From: a virus
Lineage: Duplodnaviria > Heunggongvirae > Uroviricota > Caudoviricetes
Direction: 5' to 3' (one strand)
Length of the DNA: 13,497 bases
Virus record (IMG/VR): IMGVR_UViG_3300028532_000009
A model generated the notes under the pieces. It saw only the letters and a program-made list of their open reading frames with translations, was not told the DNA's origin and made no database searches. The number at the start of each line of letters is the position of its first letter. Position 1 is the first letter of the stretch. Positions 2,665 through 13,497 of the stretch are shown here, piece after piece. Both the position numbers and the translations under genes were made by a program.

Positions 2665-3105
2665 ATGTCTACCTATTCTTTTATGGATGTCACTGCGACG
2701 CTGACCGGGCCGACCGGTTCGATTGACCTCGGGTACGGTTCGGCAAGTTCTGAAGAGGGGATTGTGGTTGCGATGGGCGGTCCTAAAAACACCATGACCA
2801 TCGGTGCTGATGGCGAAGTGATGCACAGTCTCCATGCAGATAAAAGCGGGACGATTACCGTTAACCTTCTGAAGACATCACCGACAAATAAAAAATTGTC
2901 GCTGGCGTATAACGCACAGAGCCAGTCTTCTGCCACATGGGGGAATAACGTTATCGTGATCCGCAACAAGGTCAGCGGCGACATCATCACGGCACGCAGT
3001 GTTGCGTTTCAGAAACAACCGGATAACGCCAACGCTAAAACCGGTAATACGATGCCGTGGGTGTTTGACTGCGGCAAGATTGACCAGGTTCTCGGGGAGT
3101 TTTAA
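2665..3105 (+). CDS. Tail tube-like protein (146 aa)
   Basis: ATG 2665 preceded by AGGGGAAG (2654-2661). Small protein between the sheath-like gene and the chaperone; resembles DUF3277-type tube proteins from memory. Confidence 0.65.
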   Translation: MSTYSFMDVTATLTGPTGSIDLGYGSASSEEGIVVAMGGPKNTMTIGADGEVMHSLHADKSGTITVNLLKTSPTNKKLSLAYNAQSQSSATWGNNVIVIRNKVSGDIITARSVAFQKQPDNANAKTGNTMPWVFDCGKIDQVLGEF

Positions 3106-3108
3106 TGC

Positions 3109-3561
3109 ATGGAATTCGAAATTAAAGGCGTGAAATATCGCACGGCAAAACTCAGCGTTTTTGACCAGTTGAAAGTGACCCGCAAACTTCTGCCGGTGCT
3201 GGCAGGAATGATGTCAGATTTCGGGAGCATTCGCTCCCGTTTGCCTGCTGATGGCAAAATCGACACCGTGAAATTCGAGCAGTTAAAACCGGTGTTTGAA
3301 ACCATGCTCCCGCGTATCGCTGAGGAACTGTCTTCCCTGACCGAAGATGACACCGATGCGATTATTCATCCCTGTCTTGCGGTGGTATCGCGGCGTCATA
3401 TGGACGGATGGGTGCCAGTATTTACTCGGGGCGAACTGATGTTTGATGATATTGACCTGCTGGTCATGCTTCATCTGGTGGCGCGGGTGGTCGCCGATTC
3501 GCTGGGAAATTTTTTGCCTACACCCCTTACCAGCACGACGCAGAGCCTGCAACAGGGCTGA
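3109..3561 (+). CDS. Tail assembly chaperone (150 aa), zero-frame product
   Basis: ATG 3109 with GGGGAG (3094-3099) upstream, stop TGA 3559-3561. Lies immediately 5' of the tape measure gene and contains an in-phase slippery run followed by an open -1 frame (see next two features). Confidence 0.65.
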   Translation: MEFEIKGVKYRTAKLSVFDQLKVTRKLLPVLAGMMSDFGSIRSRLPADGKIDTVKFEQLKPVFETMLPRIAEELSSLTEDDTDAIIHPCLAVVSRRHMDGWVPVFTRGELMFDDIDLLVMLHLVARVVADSLGNFLPTPLTSTTQSLQQG

Positions 3562-3749
3562 CGTTTAACAGCCTGCCGGACGGGCTGTCCTACCTTCTCA
3601 ATCCGGTTGACGCCGGGTTAATTCCTTATACAGCACTTAAAGATGGCTCTGTCGATTTGTACGACATTGCTCTCTTGAATGACCATCTGGCGGTAAAAGC
3701 GGATAACCAGCGGCGCATTGAGAAATGGAGAGAGGATAATGAACGCTGA
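3109..3749 (+). CDS. Tail assembly chaperone, putative -1 frameshift fusion product (~213 aa)
   Basis: The -1 frame relative to the chaperone is open from 3456 to TGA 3747-3749. A slip at T_TTT_TTG (3510-3516) would append ~79 codons (FAYTPYQHDAEPATGLTFNSLPDGLSYLLNPVDAGLIPYTALKDGSVDLYDIALLNDHLAVKADNQRRIEKWREDNER) that read like genuine protein. Analogous to the lambda G/GT arrangement. Confidence 0.45.
3510..3516 (+). other. Candidate -1 ribosomal slippery heptamer T_TTT_TTG
   Basis: Six consecutive T then G, phased as X_XXY_YYZ in the chaperone frame (codons AAT 3508-3510, TTT 3511-3513, TTG 3514-3516). It lies inside the ~105-nt overlap between the zero frame and the open -1 frame. Confidence 0.4.
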
Positions 3750-5745
3750 AACTATTAAAGATTTCCTCGTCTCGCTTGGCTTCAGTGTGGATGATGCAGG
3801 AGCGAAAAAGTTCGGTTCTGTCCTCGCCGGTACAACTGCAAATGTCATCAAAATGGGGCTGGCCGTCGAAGGAACTGCACTGTCCGTGGTGGCCTTCACG
3901 GCTAAGATCGCCTCCGGTCTGGATAATCTTTACTGGGCGTCACAGCGCACCGGCGCGACGGTCCATGGAATTCAGTCTATTGGCTATGCGGTTTCGCAGG
4001 TTGGCGGCAGTGCAGACGCTGCGCGCGGGTCACTGGAGAGCCTTGCCCGTTTTATCCGTAATAGCCCCGGGGCTGAGGGATTTCTGAATCGCCTGGGCGT
4101 ACAGACCCGTGATGCCAGCGGTAACATGCGTGACATGGCTGCTATCTTTACGGGCGTTGGACAGAAACTCAGCAGCATGCCGTATTACCGGGCTAACCAG
4201 TATGCGCAGATGCTGGGCATTGACGAAAATACCCTGATGGCTATGCGTCGCGGAGTGGGGCAGTTCAGCGCTCAGTATTCAGAAATGGTGAAAGCGATCG
4301 GATTTAATGCCGATCAGGCTGCCTTATCGTCAAACCGGTTTATGACCTCGCTGAAATCGCTCGGTGAAATGGCCGGGATGGCGCGGGACAAAATCGGATC
4401 GAATCTTGCGGACGGACTGGCGGGGCAGATTGATAACCTGCGCAAAAAGATAATTGAAAATTTTCCCAAAATTGAAGTCACCATCACAAAGGTCATAAAA
4501 GGGATCCTCTGGCTGGGTGAGATAGTCGGGCGGGTTGCATTTCGGATAGTCGATGGTGTCGGAGATATCATCGAGTGGTGGGGAAAACTGGATGCCGAAA
4601 CGAAAACCCTGATAGAGGTTATCGGCGGCCTGGTTGTCGCCATGCGGATACTTAACTCTACTTTCTGGATGTCACCTATAGGGCTGATTACTGGTCTGAT
4701 CGTGGCTCTCGGTCTCTTGTGGGAAGACTACAAAACATGGAAAGAAGGCGGTAACAGCCTTATCGACTGGGAAAAATGGCAACCGGCAATAGATAAAGCG
4801 AAGGATGCGATCACCTGGTTCCGCGACAAATTACTCGAGCTGAAAGACAGCGTGGGGGGATGGCAAAAATCACTGGAAATCCTCGGTACATTCATCGCGG
4901 GTGTCTGGATATCCAAGGTTCTGGGGGCTTTCGGAAAAATATCAGGTTTGCCGGTCCCAGCCTGGCTTAAATTGTGGGCGCTTTACGCAGGTTATATTGT
5001 TAGTGACAGAGAAAATATTGCCGATAGCGCAAAATCTTCACTGAGGTATACGAAGCGAATTATCGGCGACACGCTGGCTGCTATTGGTATAAAAACAGAT
5101 ATCGGACGCAGGGATGTCAGTGAGGTCCGTGAATGGCCTGCGTGGATGGACTGGTTGCACGGGGGACCCGGTAAAGTTATCCGGCAGGGACAGAGTAACG
5201 GTGTAGTGCATGGCTCCAACGTCCAGCCCGACATCCCCGGCGGCGGTACTCTTGCTGATCGCAACAATAACCCCGGGAACATTCGCCCGGTGAGCGGTAA
5301 AGGGTTCCGGTTTTTCGAATCAGCTCTTGAGGGCTGGGAGGCGATGAAAAACCAGCTCATGCGTTACTTTACCGGGAAAACAACCGGACGAGCATTACAG
5401 ACTATTCAGGATATTGTCAGTACCTGGGCCCCGGCAGGTGATAACAACGATCCGAAAAAGTATGCACAGGATGTTGCGAAATGGATGGGAGTATCACCGA
5501 ATGCAATATTGAATCTTACAGATCCCCAGACTATGGGAGCATTGATGCAGTCGATGGCGCGCAAAGAAGGTTATTCAAACTGGAACAGCCCGCTGGCGTA
5601 TCAGGCCGCCGCTGGCAGCCTTAACCAGCAGACTGTTATAAATGTTCATGGAGTTAACAACCCTCAGGAGGCGGCTAATCTGATCGCTGACAAGCAGGGG
5701 GCTGTAAATGCCAGGGCGGTACAGCAATTGAAAGGACCTGCGTAA
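3739..5745 (+). CDS. Tail tape measure protein (668 aa)
   Basis: ATG 3739 preceded by GGAGAGAGG (3726-3734); the ORF-track start at 3718 is a TTG with no RBS. Largest gene in the cluster, located after the chaperone. Two long hydrophobic segments (about 4610-4725 and 4873-5010) and a hydrophilic C-terminal module. Confidence 0.85.
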   Translation: MNAETIKDFLVSLGFSVDDAGAKKFGSVLAGTTANVIKMGLAVEGTALSVVAFTAKIASGLDNLYWASQRTGATVHGIQSIGYAVSQVGGSADAARGSLESLARFIRNSPGAEGFLNRLGVQTRDASGNMRDMAAIFTGVGQKLSSMPYYRANQYAQMLGIDENTLMAMRRGVGQFSAQYSEMVKAIGFNADQAALSSNRFMTSLKSLGEMAGMARDKIGSNLADGLAGQIDNLRKKIIENFPKIEVTITKVIKGILWLGEIVGRVAFRIVDGVGDIIEWWGKLDAETKTLIEVIGGLVVAMRILNSTFWMSPIGLITGLIVALGLLWEDYKTWKEGGNSLIDWEKWQPAIDKAKDAITWFRDKLLELKDSVGGWQKSLEILGTFIAGVWISKVLGAFGKISGLPVPAWLKLWALYAGYIVSDRENIADSAKSSLRYTKRIIGDTLAAIGIKTDIGRRDVSEVREWPAWMDWLHGGPGKVIRQGQSNGVVHGSNVQPDIPGGGTLADRNNNPGNIRPVSGKGFRFFESALEGWEAMKNQLMRYFTGKTTGRALQTIQDIVSTWAPAGDNNDPKKYAQDVAKWMGVSPNAILNLTDPQTMGALMQSMARKEGYSNWNSPLAYQAAAGSLNQQTVINVHGVNNPQEAANLIADKQGAVNARAVQQLKGPA

Positions 5746-6395
5746 TGGACTTTTTATCTGTTTTACTGCAGCAGCAAACCCGCTCAATAGGAATCATTAT
5801 TCCTGATGTGGTTATTACCGAAAAGCACACTGACGCCCTGGAAATTACGGAACATCCGGTTGAACAGCCCACGAATGCTGGTGCCAGTGGTGAGGGCGCT
5901 GGTTATATATCAGAACACGCATTCAGGCGCCCTTCTGAGGTTGTGATGGAAACCGGTTTTTCCGGAGGCGGATCGCTGCTTGATTTTGCCAGTAACCTGA
6001 CGGCTACCAGTTTACTGGGGCTGAGCCCGAAAGAACTGTATCAGGAACTGCTTAACCTGCAGCGGAATCGTATTCCTTTCGATGTGACAACCGGCAAGCG
6101 TATTTACAACAATATGTTGATAAAAACGCTGGAGGTTACGACCGATAAGAGTAGTGAAAATGTGCTTCTGGCGACACTTACCCTCAGGGAAGTAATTATT
6201 ACCTCCACGCAGTCAGTCAGGGTTGCCCCGAAAAACAATATGACCGAGGGAGTCGGAACGTCTGCTGTGCAGAATACAGGCACCAAAACAACGGGGCTGC
6301 CGAATAATTCCATTCTGAAATCGCTGCCACAGATGGCGCAAGAAGGTATCTCCACTGTTGATGGGTATTTGAGCAATTTATTTCTGGGAAGGTGA
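5745..6395 (+). CDS. Post-tape-measure tail/baseplate protein (216 aa), function unassigned
   Basis: ATG 5745 overlaps the tape measure stop (TAATG), with AAAGGA upstream (5729-5734). The position corresponds to the distal tail or baseplate initiator of contractile tails. No diagnostic motif recognised. Confidence 0.55.
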   Translation: MDFLSVLLQQQTRSIGIIIPDVVITEKHTDALEITEHPVEQPTNAGASGEGAGYISEHAFRRPSEVVMETGFSGGGSLLDFASNLTATSLLGLSPKELYQELLNLQRNRIPFDVTTGKRIYNNMLIKTLEVTTDKSSENVLLATLTLREVIITSTQSVRVAPKNNMTEGVGTSAVQNTGTKTTGLPNNSILKSLPQMAQEGISTVDGYLSNLFLGR

Positions 6396-6398
6396 TTC

Positions 6399-6701
6399 AT
6401 GCAAGCCGTAGAAATCCCACTGGTTGCTGACAATCAGACTTTTGCCACCACAATTAACGGTTCGGTTTATCACCTGTCTGTCATCTGGCGAGGCGAGTAC
6501 TGGGTTCTGGATCTTGCTGGCAGCAATGGCTCCGCCATTATATCAGGTATACCGATGATTACTGGGGCTGACCTGCTGGCACAGTATCGATATATGGATC
6601 TGGGTTTTTCTCTGGTGGTGCTCTGCGACGTGGCAGGGCAGGAGAATCCGACGCAATTCGATCTTGGAACGCTCTCACACCTCTATGTTTTCACGGAGTA
6701 A
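6399..6701 (+). CDS. Small tail/baseplate protein (100 aa)
   Basis: ATG 6399 preceded by AAGGTGA (6389-6395). Tightly packed between neighbouring tail genes. Confidence 0.5.
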   Translation: MQAVEIPLVADNQTFATTINGSVYHLSVIWRGEYWVLDLAGSNGSAIISGIPMITGADLLAQYRYMDLGFSLVVLCDVAGQENPTQFDLGTLSHLYVFTE

Positions 6702-6703
6702 CA

Positions 6704-7735
6704 ATGTCGAAAAACTGGATGCGTCACTTTGAATTATTGCTTGTTGATGATAAGGGCGACGGGATAAAAATTTCTGAGCTTAAAGTCACTTTCAATATTC
6801 AGAAAATGCCTGCGACCATATTTAATGGATTCGTTGGAAATTTTAAGGTTTATAACCTGTCTCCTACCACTCAGAACCGGATTATGCAGAAGGAGTTTTC
6901 GCGTATACAGGTTATTGCCGGATACAAGGGGCAACCGGATGCAGCAGGTAATTATCCTGATGAAAACGTTGGTATGATATTCAATGGAGATATCCGTTTT
7001 ACTGTCACTGGTAAAGATAATGCCACAGACAGTTGGATCATGTTGCAGTGTATTGACAGCTGGGAAGGCCACCTGAACGCAAGTGTGAAAACCACAGTGG
7101 CATCTGGCTGGAAGTACAGAGATCTTTTCAGTCTGGGTATGAAATCATTCGAACCATATGGCATCGAATCCGGCGCAGTTCCTGACATGCCTGAAACGGT
7201 ATTTCCCCGGGGTCGCGTTGTTTATCAAAACACATCAAGGTTGATGAATCATATCGCAGGGCAGTGTAAGGCTAACTGGTGGTATGAAAATAATCTGGTA
7301 AATATTGTTCCTGAAGATAAATATATTGGTGTTGCTACGGTGTTGAATGCTAACACCGGGCTTATCGGTATGCCACAGCAGACGATGGGAGCTGGCGTAA
7401 ATGTCAGATGCCTGATTAATCCAAATATTAAGCTCGGTGGGCTTATTCGTCTGGATCAGGCATCTGTATACCGTGCCTCTTTGAGTAATGACCAGGTAGC
7501 GAAATCGCCAGCACGACTGGATGAGTCTGAAAGCGACGGTAATCTCTACGTTAACGGTCTGCCAGGCATGTCACAGCCTGCCAGCATTAATACTGACGGT
7601 GATTACATTGTGGGCAGCATTGATTATACTGGCGACACCCGAGGGCAGGCGTGGTATATGGACCTGCTTTGCCTGGCTAAAGGTGGCAAAGAATTGCTTA
7701 ACTCGAAAGGGATTGATGCGGCGAAATACACATGA
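6704..7735 (+). CDS. Baseplate hub-like protein (343 aa)
   Basis: ATG 6704 with GGAG (6695-6698) upstream. Size and position between tape measure and spike match a hub of the gpD/Mu-P/XkdQ class. Looks more AT-rich than flanking genes by eye. Assignment is by synteny. Confidence 0.55.
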   Translation: MSKNWMRHFELLLVDDKGDGIKISELKVTFNIQKMPATIFNGFVGNFKVYNLSPTTQNRIMQKEFSRIQVIAGYKGQPDAAGNYPDENVGMIFNGDIRFTVTGKDNATDSWIMLQCIDSWEGHLNASVKTTVASGWKYRDLFSLGMKSFEPYGIESGAVPDMPETVFPRGRVVYQNTSRLMNHIAGQCKANWWYENNLVNIVPEDKYIGVATVLNANTGLIGMPQQTMGAGVNVRCLINPNIKLGGLIRLDQASVYRASLSNDQVAKSPARLDESESDGNLYVNGLPGMSQPASINTDGDYIVGSIDYTGDTRGQAWYMDLLCLAKGGKELLNSKGIDAAKYT

Positions 7736-8067
7736 AAAGACCATTGTTGACAGTTTTACTTGTCTGTATCTCCTTCATTTCCTTTGCTGATACCGGTTGC
7801 GGACCATTTACGATCAACTGGAAAGCGCAAGACGGACTTGCAAGGATTAATGGACAGAAACCGGAGACACAGAAAATCATCTTTCTCAAACAGGAAGGTG
7901 ATTATGACAATGTGAACATCCAATGGATGATTCCGGGTAATGGGCGTTGGTTAGGGATGGATTTTGTGGCCAGAAATGGCAAGCCGATCCTCAACGTTGA
8001 AGTTATCCGCAAAAATATGGACGAGCCTCGGGAGTTCTGGACGTATGATTGCCGGAAGGTGAAGTGA
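7732..8067 (+). CDS. Small secreted protein of unknown function (111 aa) with N-terminal signal peptide; accessory (moron) gene
   Basis: ATG 7732 overlaps the hub stop (ATGA). N-terminus MKRPLLTVLLVCISFISFA followed by DTG is a typical Sec signal peptide with an AxA-like cleavage site. The mature part has two Cys, one near each end. The RBS is weak, so expression probably depends on coupling to the hub gene. Confidence 0.6.
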   Translation: MKRPLLTVLLVCISFISFADTGCGPFTINWKAQDGLARINGQKPETQKIIFLKQEGDYDNVNIQWMIPGNGRWLGMDFVARNGKPILNVEVIRKNMDEPREFWTYDCRKVK

Positions 8068-8142
8068 ATTACATTGGCGTCCAGCTTCTGCAGAACAGCA
8101 TGGATGCGCCGAAAATCATCGGTTCCTTTCCATGCAAAAAGA

Positions 8143-8170
8143 TTGTTGATTAATCACTCGTAATTATAAT
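8143..8170 (+). promoter_or_regulatory. Sigma70-like promoter for the small membrane-protein gene
   Basis: TTGTTG (8143-8148), 16-bp spacer, consensus TATAAT (8165-8170), about 37 nt upstream of ATG 8207. Short inverted repeat ATCAC (8153-8157) / GTGAT (8171-8175) brackets the -10 box and could be an operator. Confidence 0.5.
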
Positions 8171-8206: not shown

Positions 8207-8446
8207 ATGTTCGGATTTGATAAATTAATAACTCCAAAAATCATCAACGTTCTGTATGGCATCACAATGTTACTTCTGGTTGTTGCCGCCATTATAACGT
8301 TTGTTAATGGGAAGGCTGCTGGCGCTTTAGTGCTTTTGTTATGTGCTGTATTTTGCCGAATATTCTTTGAGTGCATCATGGTTTCATTTAAAAACAATGA
8401 GTATCTTCGCCGAATAGCTGAAGCGTTAGAAGCAAACAAGCAGTAA
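8207..8446 (+). CDS. Small two-helix inner-membrane protein (79 aa), possibly DUF4282-like; accessory (moron) gene
   Basis: ATG 8207 with AAGGA (8193-8197) upstream. Two hydrophobic helices (INVLYGITMLLLVVAAIITFV and ALVLLLCAVFCRIFFECIMVSF) and an amphipathic charged tail. The N-terminal FGFDKLITPKIINVLYGI motif matches my recollection of DUF4282 small membrane proteins (unverified). Has its own promoter and terminator and is AT-rich. Confidence 0.7.
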   Translation: MFGFDKLITPKIINVLYGITMLLLVVAAIITFVNGKAAGALVLLLCAVFCRIFFECIMVSFKNNEYLRRIAEALEANKQ

Positions 8447-8462
8447 TGAAACTTCAATAATG

Positions 8463-8487
8463 AACCCGCCACCCGGCGGGTTTTTTA
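8463..8487 (+). terminator. Rho-independent terminator
   Basis: GC stem CCCGCC (8465-8470) / GGCGGG (8475-8480) with 4-nt loop ACCC, followed by TTTTTT (8481-8486), 17 nt after the stop of the membrane-protein gene. Confidence 0.75.
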
Positions 8488-8505
8488 CTTTCTGGAGACA
8501 TATGA

Positions 8506-9258
8506 ATGCCCGTTTCTTTAAGCGCTCAACTTGGTAGCAAAGAACAGGCCGATGTAAGACTTGCTGGCTCTGTCATGTCGGCGCTGCGTGTTTCTATGCC
8601 CGGCATCGTCCAGTCATTTGATCCGGACACGGTAACAGTGGTTGTTCAACCTGCGATTAAAGGCTATGAGCCGGACTCAAATGGAATCAACCAGTCGACG
8701 ACATTACCCCTGCTGGTGGATGTACCAGTGGTATTCCCGCGCGGCGGAGGCTGTACGTTGACTTTTCCGGTAAAAGCCGGGGATGAGTGTCTTGTCGTTT
8801 TTGCCGATCGTTGTATTGATTTCTGGTGGCAGAGTGGCGGTGTGCAGGAGCCTGTCGACGACCGGGTGCATGATTTATCGGATGCTTTCTGTATCGTCGG
8901 GCCGCAGTCTCAGGCGAGGAAGATTAGCGGTATTAATACCAGTGCTACACAGTTGCGTAGTGACGACGGCAGCACCTATTTTGAGCTTAATCCTGATACC
9001 CGGAAAATTAAAATTGTCGCTCCGGGGGGGCTTGATGTGGTTGCCCCTCTGGCTGATTTTTCTGAGAAAGTAACCATTCATGGCCTGTTAACCTGGATGG
9101 GTGGCATGGTGGGGTCTGTTGTTTCTGGTGTGGCTTCAAAAATCACTGGTGCTGTTGAGTTTTTGGGTAGCGTGAAGGCTAACGGCAAGCCAATCGATGA
9201 TACGCACACTCATGGCGGTGTTCAGCGCGGTGGAAGCAATACCGATGGGGTAAACTGA
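8506..9258 (+). CDS. Baseplate central spike protein, gpV/Mu gp45-like (250 aa)
   Basis: ATG 8506 with TGGAGA (8493-8498) upstream. First gene after the terminator, so transcription resumes or reads through here. The N-terminal part and Gly-rich C-terminus (HTHGGVQRGGSNTDGVN) resemble spike proteins from memory. Position before wedge and J-like genes. Confidence 0.65.
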   Translation: MPVSLSAQLGSKEQADVRLAGSVMSALRVSMPGIVQSFDPDTVTVVVQPAIKGYEPDSNGINQSTTLPLLVDVPVVFPRGGGCTLTFPVKAGDECLVVFADRCIDFWWQSGGVQEPVDDRVHDLSDAFCIVGPQSQARKISGINTSATQLRSDDGSTYFELNPDTRKIKIVAPGGLDVVAPLADFSEKVTIHGLLTWMGGMVGSVVSGVASKITGAVEFLGSVKANGKPIDDTHTHGGVQRGGSNTDGVN

Positions 9259-9611
9259 TGCGATACAGACGTGAAGACGCCGATGGCGATTACACCTTTG
9301 GCAGCGGTGATGACACCTGGCTGATTAACTCACCGGAGGCCGTGGCGCAGGCGGTAAAAACGCGATTCGAATTGTGGTATGGGCAATGGTTTCTCGACAC
9401 CACCGAGGGGACTCCGTGGATCCAGTCCGTACTCGGTAAGCAGAAGCCGGAAACCTACAACCTGGCGATCCGTAAGCGCATCCTCGAAACGCAGGGCGTT
9501 AAATCAATCCTCTCTTTCAATACGACGGTGGATACCACGACCCGACGTGTCATGTTTTCCGCTGAAATCGACACTCTTTATGGAATAACGACTGTTACAT
9601 CGGAGGCGTAA
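9258..9611 (+). CDS. Small baseplate wedge protein (117 aa), gpW/gp25-position
   Basis: ATG 9258 overlaps the previous stop (TGATG) and its own stop overlaps the next start (TAATG). Size and synteny between the spike and the J-like protein. Confidence 0.55.
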   Translation: MRYRREDADGDYTFGSGDDTWLINSPEAVAQAVKTRFELWYGQWFLDTTEGTPWIQSVLGKQKPETYNLAIRKRILETQGVKSILSFNTTVDTTTRRVMFSAEIDTLYGITTVTSEA

Positions 9612-10810
9612 TGGCTCTGAACCTTGATTCTCTCGGTTTATCTGCAAAGGTAACCGCGGAGGGGATCAGTGCGCCTGATTATCAGACGATACTCAGCACC
9701 CTGATTAGCTATTTTCAGCAGATTTATGGCAGTGATGCCTACCTCGAACCGGACAGCAAAGACGGCCAGATGGTGGCTCTGATGGCGCTGGCGATTCATG
9801 ATGCCAATAATATGGCGATAACTGTCTACAACTGTTTTTCACCAGCAACCAGCTATGGGGCTGCACTGACCAGTAACGTGAAAATAAATGGTATTTCACG
9901 TAAAGGCGCGACGAACTCTACGGTTGATTTGCTTCTTACAGGAACTGCCGGAACAACCATCATTAATGGCAGCGTGAAAGACAGTAATAATGTGATATGG
10001 CGTTTGCCTGCTTCAGTGGTGGTCGGCGTGGATGGTACAGTGATGGTGACCGCAACATGTTCCGTCAGTGGTGCAGTGGCGGCGCTGGCTGGAACTATCA
10101 CTGAAATTAATACGCCAACCCGTGGCTGGGTTTCGGTAACCAATCCTGCTGCGGCTACTGTGGGCACTCCGGCAGAAACTGATGCGGAGTTACGTATCCG
10201 ACAGTCGCAAAGTGTTGCGTTGCCATCAATAACCCCATTTGAAGCACTGAATGGTGCTGTTTCTAATGTTACCGGTGTAACCCGCCACAAACTCTATGAA
10301 AACGATAATGGTTCGGAGGACGGTAACGGGTTACCGCCACACTCTGTTGCTGTAATTGTGGATGGCGGTGATGTGACGGATATTGCTCAGGCTATCAGAG
10401 GGAATAAAGGCCAGGGGACAGCCACTCACGGTACAACATCCGTTACGGTTCCGGATAAATACGGCAATCCCCATGTAATCAAATTTTCGCGTTCCAGTGA
10501 TGTGCCTGTTTATGCCCGGATTAAATTAAAAGTTTTTACGGGTTATACCTCACAGATAGGGCAGCAGATCCAGCAGGCTATTTCCGACTATATCAATAGT
10601 CTGATGATTGGTGATTCGGTCCTTTTAAGTCGCATTTACTCACCGGCGAATCTTGGCGTGGTGAGTGGCGGGAATGCACGCTATTACGATATTCAGGAAC
10701 TGACGATTGGGAAATCCCCGGGGGCTTTGTCGTCATCAAACATTGATATCAGATACAACGAATCTGCGTCCTGTACCCCGGAAAATATCGTTATAACGGT
10801 GGAGTCATGA
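9611..10810 (+). CDS. Baseplate J-like protein (399 aa)
   Basis: ATG 9611 with GGAGG (9602-9606) upstream. Size and position (wedge, J-like, next baseplate protein, fibre) match P2 gpJ / Mu gp47 / XkdT-type proteins. Confidence 0.7.
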   Translation: MALNLDSLGLSAKVTAEGISAPDYQTILSTLISYFQQIYGSDAYLEPDSKDGQMVALMALAIHDANNMAITVYNCFSPATSYGAALTSNVKINGISRKGATNSTVDLLLTGTAGTTIINGSVKDSNNVIWRLPASVVVGVDGTVMVTATCSVSGAVAALAGTITEINTPTRGWVSVTNPAAATVGTPAETDAELRIRQSQSVALPSITPFEALNGAVSNVTGVTRHKLYENDNGSEDGNGLPPHSVAVIVDGGDVTDIAQAIRGNKGQGTATHGTTSVTVPDKYGNPHVIKFSRSSDVPVYARIKLKVFTGYTSQIGQQIQQAISDYINSLMIGDSVLLSRIYSPANLGVVSGGNARYYDIQELTIGKSPGALSSSNIDIRYNESASCTPENIVITVES

Positions 10811-11487
10811 GCAAATACACCGAACTAATCACGAACTACCACGCCACCAAACCTAAATTTCTTGCACATGTTGATCTGATGACCCGGCCGCTTATTGATG
10901 TTGCGGCTGCCACCAGAGGGCTGATTACTGCATTTGATATTGACTCTGCGGTTGGTGTGCAACTTGACATTCTGGGATTGTGGATCGGACGTAGCCGTGT
11001 TGTCAGCCAGCCTATTTCAGGTGTTTATTTCAGCTGGGATACCGACGGGCTTGGATATGATCAGGGTGTATGGCAGGGGCCATACGATCCTGATTCCGGA
11101 TACATGTACCTCAGCGATGAAACTTATCGTGTCATCCTTAAAGCGAAGATTGCGATTAATAACTGGGACGGACGGAATGATTCGCTTCCGGCAATTCTTG
11201 ACGCGGCAACAGCAGGATCCGGACTGCGAATGCAGATAGTCGATAACCAGGACATGACGATATCGGTCTGGGTCTTTCCTGATACTGATATTTCAGATGT
11301 ATCGCGTGAGTTAATTGCGGCAATTAAACAGGGGTATCTCACAGTAAAAGCCGCCGGGGTATGGGCGGGTGGCATTGAAACACCTTCGGTGGAAACCCCA
11401 TCGGAAGGCTCAAAATTTTTTGGTTTTGATATGGATAACGAATTCATCAGTGGTTTTGATGTAGGGGCATGGGGAGTATTACTCTGA
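10807..11487 (+). CDS. Baseplate/tail protein, Mu gp48 / YmfQ (DUF2313)-like (226 aa)
   Basis: ATG 10807 in ATGA overlap with the J-like gene. Lies immediately upstream of the tail fibre gene, as gp48/XkdU/YmfQ-type proteins do. Confidence 0.65.
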   Translation: MSKYTELITNYHATKPKFLAHVDLMTRPLIDVAAATRGLITAFDIDSAVGVQLDILGLWIGRSRVVSQPISGVYFSWDTDGLGYDQGVWQGPYDPDSGYMYLSDETYRVILKAKIAINNWDGRNDSLPAILDAATAGSGLRMQIVDNQDMTISVWVFPDTDISDVSRELIAAIKQGYLTVKAAGVWAGGIETPSVETPSEGSKFFGFDMDNEFISGFDVGAWGVLL

Positions 11488-12554
11488 TGGCAAAAAATGA
11501 CTTTAAAGCATTCGCAACGGGTAAAAATGCCAATGTTATGCCGCAGGAGGAATGGGAAGCGTTGCCTGCGCTTTTATCCGGATTTACAGCAGGGAAAGCA
11601 TCCAGTGCGCAGGTGAACAAAGCCATTCGACAGGCCAGCTTTATTACGGCAGCGCTTGCACAGTACACAGCTAATAAAAGTGGGCTGGATGTGCTTGATG
11701 ATGGTGACCTGAACGGGTTTATCTCCAAAATGGAAGCGGCTTTGGGGAAGGATTTCCAGGCGCTTGACGCCACGCTCACTGCACTGGCAGGCCTTGCCAC
11801 TGCGGCAGACAAACTACCGTATTTTACGGGGAATGATACAGCCAGCCTGACAACCCTGACTAATGTTGGACGGGATATTCTGGCTAAAACAAGCAAACAG
11901 GAGGTTATTCATTATCTTGGTTTGGGAGCTACAAACGGATACGTGGGACGCTTGGTGAATACCCGGGTTTTCACGTCATCAGGTACGTACACCCCGACGC
12001 CAGGAACAAAACGGATCAGGGTCACAATAACGGGCGGCGGTGGCGGAGGGGGCGGCTGCAAGGCTATATCCAATAATGAAACGTTTTTCGGTGCTGGCGG
12101 TGGGGCCGGTGGAACAATAATGTCAATAATGACCCCGACACAGAATAGTTATCCAGTCACTATCGGCGCAGGTGGGGCCGGTGGTGTTAGTGCGACTTAC
12201 GGCATCAATGGCGGTAATAGCTTATTCGCATCGTTAATTGCTCCTGGTGGCGCAGGCGGCGGAAAATCAGGAGTCACAAACACAAACGGTGGTAACGGAG
12301 GTGTGCCGAGTACTGGCGATATAAACATCATTGGTGGATGTGGAGGCGACGGTCAGTCCGGAAATATCGGCGTTAGCGGTGAAGGCGGAACATCGTACTG
12401 GGGTGGCGGTGGACGCGCAGGCGCTGGCGGTGGTGTTAGCGGCAAGGCATATGGTTCAGGTGGCGGTGGTGCATACGATGCCGGTTATAGCGGAACCAGT
12501 ATGACGGGCGGGAAAGGCGCTGCAGGGATTTGTATTATCGAGGAGTTTGCATAA
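11487..12554 (+). CDS. Tail fibre protein (355 aa) with glycine-rich C-terminal receptor-binding region
   Basis: ATG 11487 overlaps the previous stop (TGATG) with GGGGAG (11471-11476) upstream; an in-frame ATG at 11469 is an alternative start. N-terminal fibre-like region followed by a C-terminal half dominated by poly-Gly motifs. Followed directly by a tail fibre assembly gene. Confidence 0.75.
   Translation: MAKNDFKAFATGKNANVMPQEEWEALPALLSGFTAGKASSAQVNKAIRQASFITAALAQYTANKSGLDVLDDGDLNGFISKMEAALGKDFQALDATLTALAGLATAADKLPYFTGNDTASLTTLTNVGRDILAKTSKQEVIHYLGLGATNGYVGRLVNTRVFTSSGTYTPTPGTKRIRVTITGGGGGGGGCKAISNNETFFGAGGGAGGTIMSIMTPTQNSYPVTIGAGGAGGVSATYGINGGNSLFASLIAPGGAGGGKSGVTNTNGGNGGVPSTGDINIIGGCGGDGQSGNIGVSGEGGTSYWGGGGRAGAGGGVSGKAYGSGGGGAYDAGYSGTSMTGGKGAAGICIIEEFA
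12033..12056 (+). repeat. (GGN)8 codon tract encoding eight consecutive glycines
   Basis: ggc ggc ggt ggc gga ggg ggc ggc read directly in the fibre frame. Further GGN-rich runs follow through ~12500. Confidence 0.85.
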
Positions 12555-12964: not shown

Positions 12965-13043
12965 GCCATTCAATATCTGGCGCACCGGAAGTATCGACCA
13001 GTTCCAGTGCGTCCAGATAATCCAGCCACAAATTATATTGCAT
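12936..13043 (-). pseudogene. C-terminal fragment of a second, convergent tail fibre assembly gene (tfa-prime remnant)
   Basis: Minus-strand translation gives ...EELLMQYNLWLDYLDALELVDTSGAPDIEWPTPPAVQAR-stop (stop at 12936-12938). This parallels the plus-strand Tfa C-terminus motif for motif (LDY-DA...DTS-APD-WP). Only ~35 codons remain, with no N-terminal domain and no RBS. Confidence 0.6.
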
Positions 13044-13129
13044 CAGGAGTTCCTCGCCAGAAGGTGGCGATCATTTATGATGTTGGCGTATCGACTTTGT
13101 ATAAGAAGTTTCCGGTCGGAGATAAATGA
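13028..13129 (+). pseudogene. C-terminal remnant of a Pin/Gin-family serine DNA invertase (HTH tail only)
   Basis: Plus-strand frame encodes ...NYIASGVPRQKVAIIYDVGVSTLYKKFPVGDK-stop (TGA 13127-13129). This closely matches the C-terminal HTH of the e14 Pin invertase as I recall it (...IAAGTPRQKVAIIYDVGVSTLYKRFPAGDK). Upstream in the same frame the sequence is unrelated, and no other frame encodes the catalytic domain. Confidence 0.65.
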
Positions 13130-13497
13130 AACCGTAGCACGTCGTATGCAAGAACGTGCCACGGCTGGCTGATGGACGTTCGATAGCGCGAGTTTGAATG
13201 AAAATCAGCCGGAGGTGATTTTACATAATTGTTGCGGAATCATTCAATATAGGGATTGCTTATTTCTGCCTGGATTGGTCTGAAATAGTCCCGAAATTTT
13301 CTCTAAAAAACTCGAAAAAAATGGTAACTAATTGAATGCATTAATATGCAATGGTACGTGTTTGGGATTAAAAGATGAGCGTAATTTTGCTTAACAAATT
13401 AATTTAAAAAGGGTTTCTTGTTTGTTGACGAAAACAGGAATCGTGTTCGGTCTCTTTTTATCTGTTAAAAGCCAGAAGCATTTCCTTCGCTGACTTT

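Follow-up and report, generated by a model that had tools for sequence, protein, structure and literature searches.

Why does a tailed phage carry, between the genes for its baseplate hub and its membrane-puncturing spike, a gene for a small protein that bears a predicted export signal? We address this question in the window, the whole 13,497-nt stretch of viral DNA analyzed here, which is the tail module of an E. coli prophage; a 921-nt query around the gene, hereafter gene X, is 100% identical to E. coli R1 (NZ_CP031706). The phage is temperate and of the SEN34 (Brunovirus) type, and its baseplate is of the "minimal myophage" kind described for Pam3, XM1, and E217 (PMC11633184, PMC10329688). 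The initial annotation had placed a 111-aa open reading frame between hub and spike, and both the frame (7732..8067, + strand) and its flanks (a PHROG 196 hub and a PF18352 spike) are borne out; a DUF4282 gene that also lies inside the hub-spike gap had been overlooked. The module is laid out as follows:

1509-2654, sheath (DUF3383)
2665-3105, tube
3109-3561, chaperone
3718-5745, tape measure
5745-6395, Dit-like protein
6399-6701, plug of the Pam3-gp18 type
6704..7735, + strand, baseplate hub of the E217-gp41 type (PF22759 E217_GP41, PHROG 196 "baseplate hub", E=8.7e-79)
7732..8067, + strand, gene X, 111-aa precursor of a small, predicted exported protein (PHROG 3443, homologues, AlphaFold2 pLDDT 88, dN/dS 0.11)
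8207-8446, + strand, DUF4282 two-helix membrane protein (PF14110, E=1.2e-10; PHROG 12129)
8506-9258, + strand, membrane-puncturing spike (PF18352, spike N-terminal domain, E=3.4e-44; GpV apex motif)
9258-9611, sheath initiator
9611-10810, baseplate J
10807-11487, DUF2612 wedge protein, followed by the fibre

At the margins of this layout, a small DUF6889 frame in the RefSeq annotation (3585-3749) shares sequence with the 3' end of the chaperone and the 5' end of the tape measure and may be a frameshift extension of the tail assembly chaperone. In the stretches 11469-12554 and 12965-13497, the tail-fibre protein contains long glycine runs, GGGGGGGGC together with many GG repeats, and 3' of its gene the RefSeq annotation shows tail-fibre-assembly genes that are broken, along with a fragment of a helix-turn-helix gene, at the prophage end beside pphA.

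X is a predicted Sec substrate with a conserved cysteine pair

The ATG of X (7732-7734) overlaps the TGA stop of the hub gene (7733-7735) as ATGA, in keeping with the coupling of the two genes proposed at the outset. No Shine-Dalgarno sequence is seen 5-10 nt upstream of the start, and translation of X therefore probably depends on coupling to the hub. The precursor divides into two parts:

7732..7788, + strand, signal peptide, codons 1-19 (MKRPLLTVLLVCISFISFA), read from the sequence, with a predicted signal peptidase I cut after S-F-A
7789..8064, + strand, mature 92-aa all-beta domain, delimited by conserved columns and model secondary structure

As marks of a Sec signal we took a basic N-region, a hydrophobic core of 10-15 residues, and small residues at -3/-1, all kept across homologues, and we judged them by inspection and with a hydrophobicity script. 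The N-terminus of X, MKRPLLTVLLVCISFISFA followed by DTGC, presents two basic residues, about 15 hydrophobic ones, and S-F-A at -3 to -1, and the arrangement (MKR, then PLLTVLLVCISFISF, then S-F-A before the D) is that of a signal peptidase I substrate. The classic signal peptide preceding DTG that was first described is thus confirmed as a layout, and it is common to the intact homologues, all of which carry 0-3 net basic N-terminal residues, a hydrophobic core, and an A-x-A-type site. All of them also place one cysteine 2-8 residues past the cleavage site and a second 4-6 residues from the C-terminus. In the window protein the cysteines noted near either end correspond to C23 (7798-7800) and C107 (8050-8052), while C12 lies within the signal peptide and is not conserved. 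An alignment of 58 sequences contains 17 invariant and 20 near-invariant columns, C107 being among the former and C23 among the latter. Such a pair, as read from the sequence, suits an oxidising compartment, and cleavage of X and its periplasmic location are predicted from the primary structure.

The initial annotation had also named lipobox prediction as a check, and the window protein contains no match to [LVI][ASTVI][GAS]C; D-T-G precedes C23, with the A-x-A-type site three residues upstream, and elsewhere in the family the first cysteine of the mature protein usually follows a Q. Judged by these features, X is not a lipoprotein.

X belongs to a widespread family under purifying selection

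X falls into PHROG 3443, its residues 6-111 aligning with profile positions 5-114 of 115 at E=3.5e-42, and is 61% identical to WP_000755137, named by NCBI a "STY1065/STY2022 family phage-derived protein"; both are catalogue entries without an assigned function. Scans of X against Pfam, NCBIfam, and PADLOC returned nothing usable: the NCBIfam release searched holds no model that matches it, and neither X nor the product of the DUF4282 gene matched a PADLOC family. Against PDB sequences, the profile drew chance nanobody matches alone (E>0.2). The profile search of the mature domain proposed in the initial annotation hence yielded the PHROG match, and none in Pfam, NCBIfam, PADLOC, or the PDB. 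The literature searched on STY1065/STY2022, DUF4282, or exclusion proteins near baseplate genes contained nothing relevant.

The homologue search returned 84 clusters, all from Enterobacterales, and when 1.84 billion representatives were searched with a profile, no more than 53 clusters matched, none of them an informative remote relative; one candidate relative, P0130, is a repeat protein and was set aside as a probably spurious match. Within its range the family is widespread, occurring in many E. coli, Salmonella, and Klebsiella genomes, and the exact window protein is found on 560 contigs, with two sister alleles on at least 1000 each. In protein clustering at 90% identity the window protein is grouped under a 344-aa hub representative, possibly owing to fused gene calls, which is probably why its exact sequence had no entry of its own in the homologue search. 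One locus with a clade B allele of X (L035, CACSKA010000001.1) is labelled Chryseobacterium sp. 18061 and contains an enterobacterial-type prophage tail module; this record is probably mislabelled or contaminated.

X has a median dN/dS of 0.11 over 97 distinct DNA alleles; the hub, compared over the same pairs, has 0.05, and no pair of X alleles exceeds 1. By these sequence comparisons X is a real gene under purifying selection, far beyond a chance open reading frame, and the overall value, with no pair above 1, gives no arms-race signal from point mutations.

X is predicted to fold as a small beta barrel

AlphaFold2 with the family alignment models X at a pLDDT of 88 and a pTM of 0.74 as a short N-terminal helix, corresponding to the signal peptide, followed by seven beta strands. 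The resulting all-beta small barrel runs from strand E21-23 through strand E101-109, the latter preceded by a loop at 92-100. The model puts C23 on the first strand and C107 on the last, and we infer a C23-C107 disulfide joining the two. The most conserved segment over both major clades is C-terminal, LNV[EQ]....N[MS][MD].P[RK] (LNV..R.NMD.PR), and includes the loop between the last two strands; in the model this makes the loop a likely binding surface. Foldseek comparison of the model with the PDB and with viral models gave nothing significant, and the fold matches no baseplate protein. Structure prediction with a fold search, by which a baseplate component might have been recognized, accordingly delivered a confident model without one.

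The hub-proximal slot is nearly always occupied by an exported protein

We compared 128 related prophage loci, 50 from a one-genome-per-species set and 78 assessable loci from IMG/VR. A member of the X family lies directly 3' of the hub in 110-111 of them (41-42 of the 50, with hub identity from 42% to 92%, and 69 of the 78). Among the remaining 17-18 loci, 13 carry a different exported protein in the same place and 4-5 are truncated or unresolved, so that all loci open to assessment encode an exported protein there. The isolated phages SEN34, Mulock, and vB_EcoM-683R1, which were checked directly, have X in the same position at 28-36% identity, and phages GZ7 and YP3 also have it. Where X is missing, it is replaced by an 80-aa cysteine-rich signal-peptide protein, by lipoproteins, or by a 154-aa signal-peptide protein, and no function was found for these alternative occupants or their neighbours. 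In the enterobacterial temperate lineage the exported-protein slot is therefore near-universal and fixed, not a sporadic insertion.

The 80-aa replacement contains a repeated C-T-T-x-N-T-G-T-T-Y-C motif, directly follows the hub (L006 4545-4787; also L069, L070, L076-L078, L096, and L115), and has no family match in Pfam, PHROGs, or PADLOC. Natural fusions also occur (L021 5075-5941, L022 5099-5989, P0091, and P0103), in which a lipobox (VAGC, VTGC, LSGC, LVSC) and a domain of about 170 aa precede a C-terminal X domain; these fusions alone bear a lipobox, and they bear it on the separate N-terminal module. At two loci the residue after the lipid-modified cysteine is T or A, which as a sequence signal suggests outer-membrane sorting. 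Burkholderia phage vB_PL1 has, between hub and spike but on the strand opposite to them, a gene for an unrelated signal-peptide protein of 123 aa (L138 3445-3816, minus strand); here an exported protein seems to have arrived at this junction independently.

The hub-spike gap as a whole ranges from about 200 to 2600 nt (loci L006-L136) and is an accessory-gene hotspot. Its other contents include PHROG 13007 exported proteins (for example L010 5349-5687), cysteine-rich proteins that have a single helix and a C-terminus resembling Mu F (L005 4339-4791), a Phd/Doc-like pair (L011 5429-6270), and a recurring pair of 263 aa and 130 aa whose small member weakly matches HEPN (L020 5510-6659; also L053, L021, L034, and L044). 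E217 gp42, encoded between hub and spike, was considered as an analogue of X and rejected, as it is unrelated to X and lacks a signal peptide.

Among more remote phages whose hub is the same, the spike gene directly follows that of the hub, as in Providencia PSTCR3 (38% hub identity), Acinetobacter Ab105-1phi, and Salmonella BP63. In Pam3 gp18, gp19, and gp20 are plug, hub, and spike in succession (PMC11633184), and the solved E217 baseplate contains no X-like protein (PMC10329688). This adjacency, together with the absence of X from the E217 baseplate, implies that the baseplate does not need X. X has neither a sequence or fold match to a baseplate structural protein nor a presence wherever this baseplate type occurs, and the literature, including the SEN34 paper, yielded no virion proteomics for any phage carrying X. 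The initial view of X as exported and not part of the virion gains indirect support from the conserved signal peptide and cysteine pair, the lack of a baseplate match, and the hub-spike adjacency elsewhere, and we conclude with a probability of about 0.85 that X is an exported non-structural accessory protein.

Alleles of X are exchanged as cassettes

Compared with the corresponding region of E. coli E9, the window is 98-100% identical across hub, DUF4282, and spike except for one sharply bounded block, which is followed at a short distance by a remnant of another allele:

7694..7984, + strand, swapped cassette of 291 nt comprising the last 13 hub codons and X codons 1-85, 26-72% identical to the E. 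coli E9 allele
8070..8153, + strand, fossil 3' end of a displaced 683R1/SEN34-type allele (GVQLLQNSMDAPKIIGSFPCKKIVD*), 25 codons and a stop with no start codon

The fossil matches at 84% over 25 aa by tblastn and is identical to the phage 683R1 allele at 55/63 nucleotide positions. Lying directly after an intact X, it marks a past cassette replacement, and like fossils are found 3' of replacement genes at L009 5320-5391, L044 4956-5009, and L029 6222-6260.

Over the compared loci conservation of X falls below that of the hub in 84% of locus pairs, and for hubs of 90% identity or more the mean identity of X is 76-83%. The dS of X is twice that of the hub in the same pairs, which points to a shuffling of old alleles rather than to rapid point mutation. 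Divergence of X tracks that of the hub (rho 0.71-0.81, against 0.34 for the equally adjacent plug), and the correlation holds along most of the hub, not at its 3' end alone. No co-evolution is seen between X and the lytic region of the tape measure (rho 0.37 overall and 0.00 among close pairs). The pattern fits a functional pairing of hub and X; plain linkage or shared clade structure could also yield it.

X probably depends on the tail transcript, and its DUF4282 neighbour resembles a moron

A consensus scan found no promoter for X above chance (4 sites against 2.4 expected). The GC content of X, 44-47%, is the same as that of the hub (about 46%), against 36-40% for the DUF4282 gene, and the swapped cassette brings 38 nt upstream of the X ATG and no more. 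Relative to the hub stop, X begins at -7 to +13 nt in those 44 loci from annotated records and genomes where the hub call is intact, and at -7 to +28 nt in IMG/VR loci; GTG or TTG starts occur in 14 of 46 homologues of the first locus set. The lack of a promoter of its own, the hub-like GC content, the short upstream segment in the cassette, and the GTG/TTG starts together suggest, at the level of sequence, low-level late expression from the tail transcript, and production of X probably accompanies that of the late tail proteins instead of taking place in the lysogen. X shows neither the promoter and terminator of its own nor the deviant composition of a classical moron. The initial annotation had likened the position of X to that of receptor-blocking or conversion genes of the lom, bor, Cor, or Llp type, and this comparison is not supported: X has no lipobox, no promoter of its own, a hub-like GC content, a start tied to the hub stop, and a fixed slot.

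The adjacent DUF4282 gene encodes a 79-aa product with two membrane helices behind a ribosome-binding site, AAGGAA, and is framed by two candidate signals:

8143..8170, + strand, candidate sigma-70 promoter (TTGTTG, 16 nt, TATAAT), identified by eye; its -35 element matches 3/6 positions and was missed by the consensus scan
8462..8493, + strand, predicted intrinsic terminator inside the tail operon, with a 9-pair stem (6 GC pairs) followed by a T tract

By these features the DUF4282 gene looks like a classical moron that is a neighbour of X and not part of it. With a strong terminator in the middle of the tail operon, late transcripts have to get past this site, presumably through antitermination.

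A tentative role in blocking phage entry from the periplasm

Neither the literature nor any experiment we found bears on the function of X, and the role that we favour is put forward tentatively: X may be a periplasmic blocker of phage entry. X would be exported via Sec and its 19-residue signal peptide removed, and the mature 92-residue domain would fold in the periplasm as a small beta barrel, probably stapled by the C23-C107 disulfide. Hub-coupled translation would supply it late and probably in small amounts. From the periplasm it would act against incoming phages with a related tail tip, its conserved C-terminal loop binding a component exposed there, while its export would separate it from the hubs that the same phage assembles into tails in the cytoplasm.

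The best candidate for that component is the hub, because hub and X are inherited together, even if the hub at the contracted tube tip is, taken by itself, an improbable target to name. In E217 the hub remains at the tip of the contracted tube once the spike leaves (PMC10329688), so that it would be exposed in the periplasm. A related phage would then contract and shed its spike, and X would bind the exposed hub of its own type and block exit of the tape measure and DNA, a chain of events that we regard as speculative and rather unlikely in its full detail. Were this plugging to occur, hub and X would form a lock-and-key pair, exchanged as a cassette much like toxin-immunity modules, and it would account for the lineage always keeping some exported protein in the slot. 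Against an entry block stands the probable timing of expression, since a protein made only late cannot protect the lysogen, unlike most exclusion genes. If X does block entry at the tail tip, it would represent a new exclusion mechanism, of consequence for prophage competition and for the choice of therapeutic phages.

The alternative that survives best, though unlikely, is an envelope- or receptor-directed factor of the Cor or Llp kind, which alters or masks an outer-membrane receptor from the periplasmic side and which, being made late, would mainly stop progeny from being wasted on debris or on already infected cells. The export signal of X agrees with this, as do the relatives that place an X domain on a lipoprotein module with T or A after the cysteine and the lipoproteins among the alternative occupants of the slot; late co-expression with tail proteins likewise fits protection of progeny. 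The window protein itself, however, lacks a lipobox, X has no similarity to any known receptor blocker in Pfam or PDB-sequence searches, and it is co-inherited with the hub and not with the fibre genes, unlike what is expected of a receptor-matched factor.

It is less probable still that X is a periplasmic inhibitor of a cell-wall hydrolase, comparable to T4 spackle, Ivy, or PliC, whose loop would enter the lytic domain of an incoming tape measure, or which would act on the phage's own endolysin and delay lysis; X has neither the family profile nor the inhibitory loop of MliC/PliC, Ivy, and other periplasmic lysozyme inhibitors.

We give little credence to X as cargo of use to the bacterial host or active in the environment, released at lysis or present at low level in lysogens with no part in conflict between phages. 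The hub-spike gap is indeed a general accessory hotspot (DUF4282, the Phd/Doc-like pair, the HEPN-like pair), and the modelled fold resembles ligand-binding barrels such as avidins and lipocalins. Such cargo, however, usually comes with its own promoter and an odd base composition, neither of which X has, whereas the start of X stays at the hub stop codon in almost all loci, and a slot so strictly reserved for an exported protein speaks for a role in the phage life cycle.

Finally, a virion or assembly component, with the N-terminus as a membrane-inserting helix or with X joining the baseplate after lysis, is very improbable despite translational coupling to a structural gene and occurrence in most members of the lineage, as X combines the classic layout of a cleavable signal with a conserved pair of cysteines, can be substituted by unrelated exported proteins, is absent from relatives with the same baseplate, and has no equivalent in the solved E217 or Pam3 baseplates (PMC10329688, PMC11633184).

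Comparison with known systems

The known system closest in action to the entry block that we favour is T4 spackle (Sp), a periplasmic superinfection-exclusion protein that inhibits the gp5 tail lysozyme. Like X it is a small phage protein with a signal peptide, and it acts in the periplasm on the incoming tail tip. The two share no sequence similarity, and the spackle fold is helical whereas X is modelled as all-beta; spackle is moreover an early gene unlinked to the tail genes, whereas X is coupled to the hub gene.

Most exported proteins encoded in tail regions that block rivals are either lipoproteins or self-contained morons that lysogens express. Cor (phi80/N15/T1) and Llp (T5) resemble X as exported accessory proteins among the tail genes of phages of enteric bacteria, a likeness extended by the X relatives that are fused to a lipoprotein module, but X has no lipobox and no homology to them, and it lies beside the hub and not beside the receptor-binding protein. 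Lambda-type morons (bor, lom) and HK97 gp15 are, like X, non-structural envelope proteins inside a late operon. Morons have their own promoter and terminator and an atypical composition, however, of which X shows none, and it is the adjacent DUF4282 gene that fits this description. The periplasmic immunity proteins of polymorphic toxins and type VI secretion differ in that no toxin partner is identified for X and its context is a phage baseplate, not a secretion system.

X consequently falls outside the lipoproteins of the Cor/Llp/Bor type, the classical morons, the lysozyme inhibitors, the PADLOC defence proteins, and the baseplate proteins. Phage-encoded exported accessory proteins in tail regions are an already known kind; what is unusual in X is its coupling to the hub at the level of the codon, the retained slot for an exported protein, and an exchange of cassettes that leaves fossils behind.
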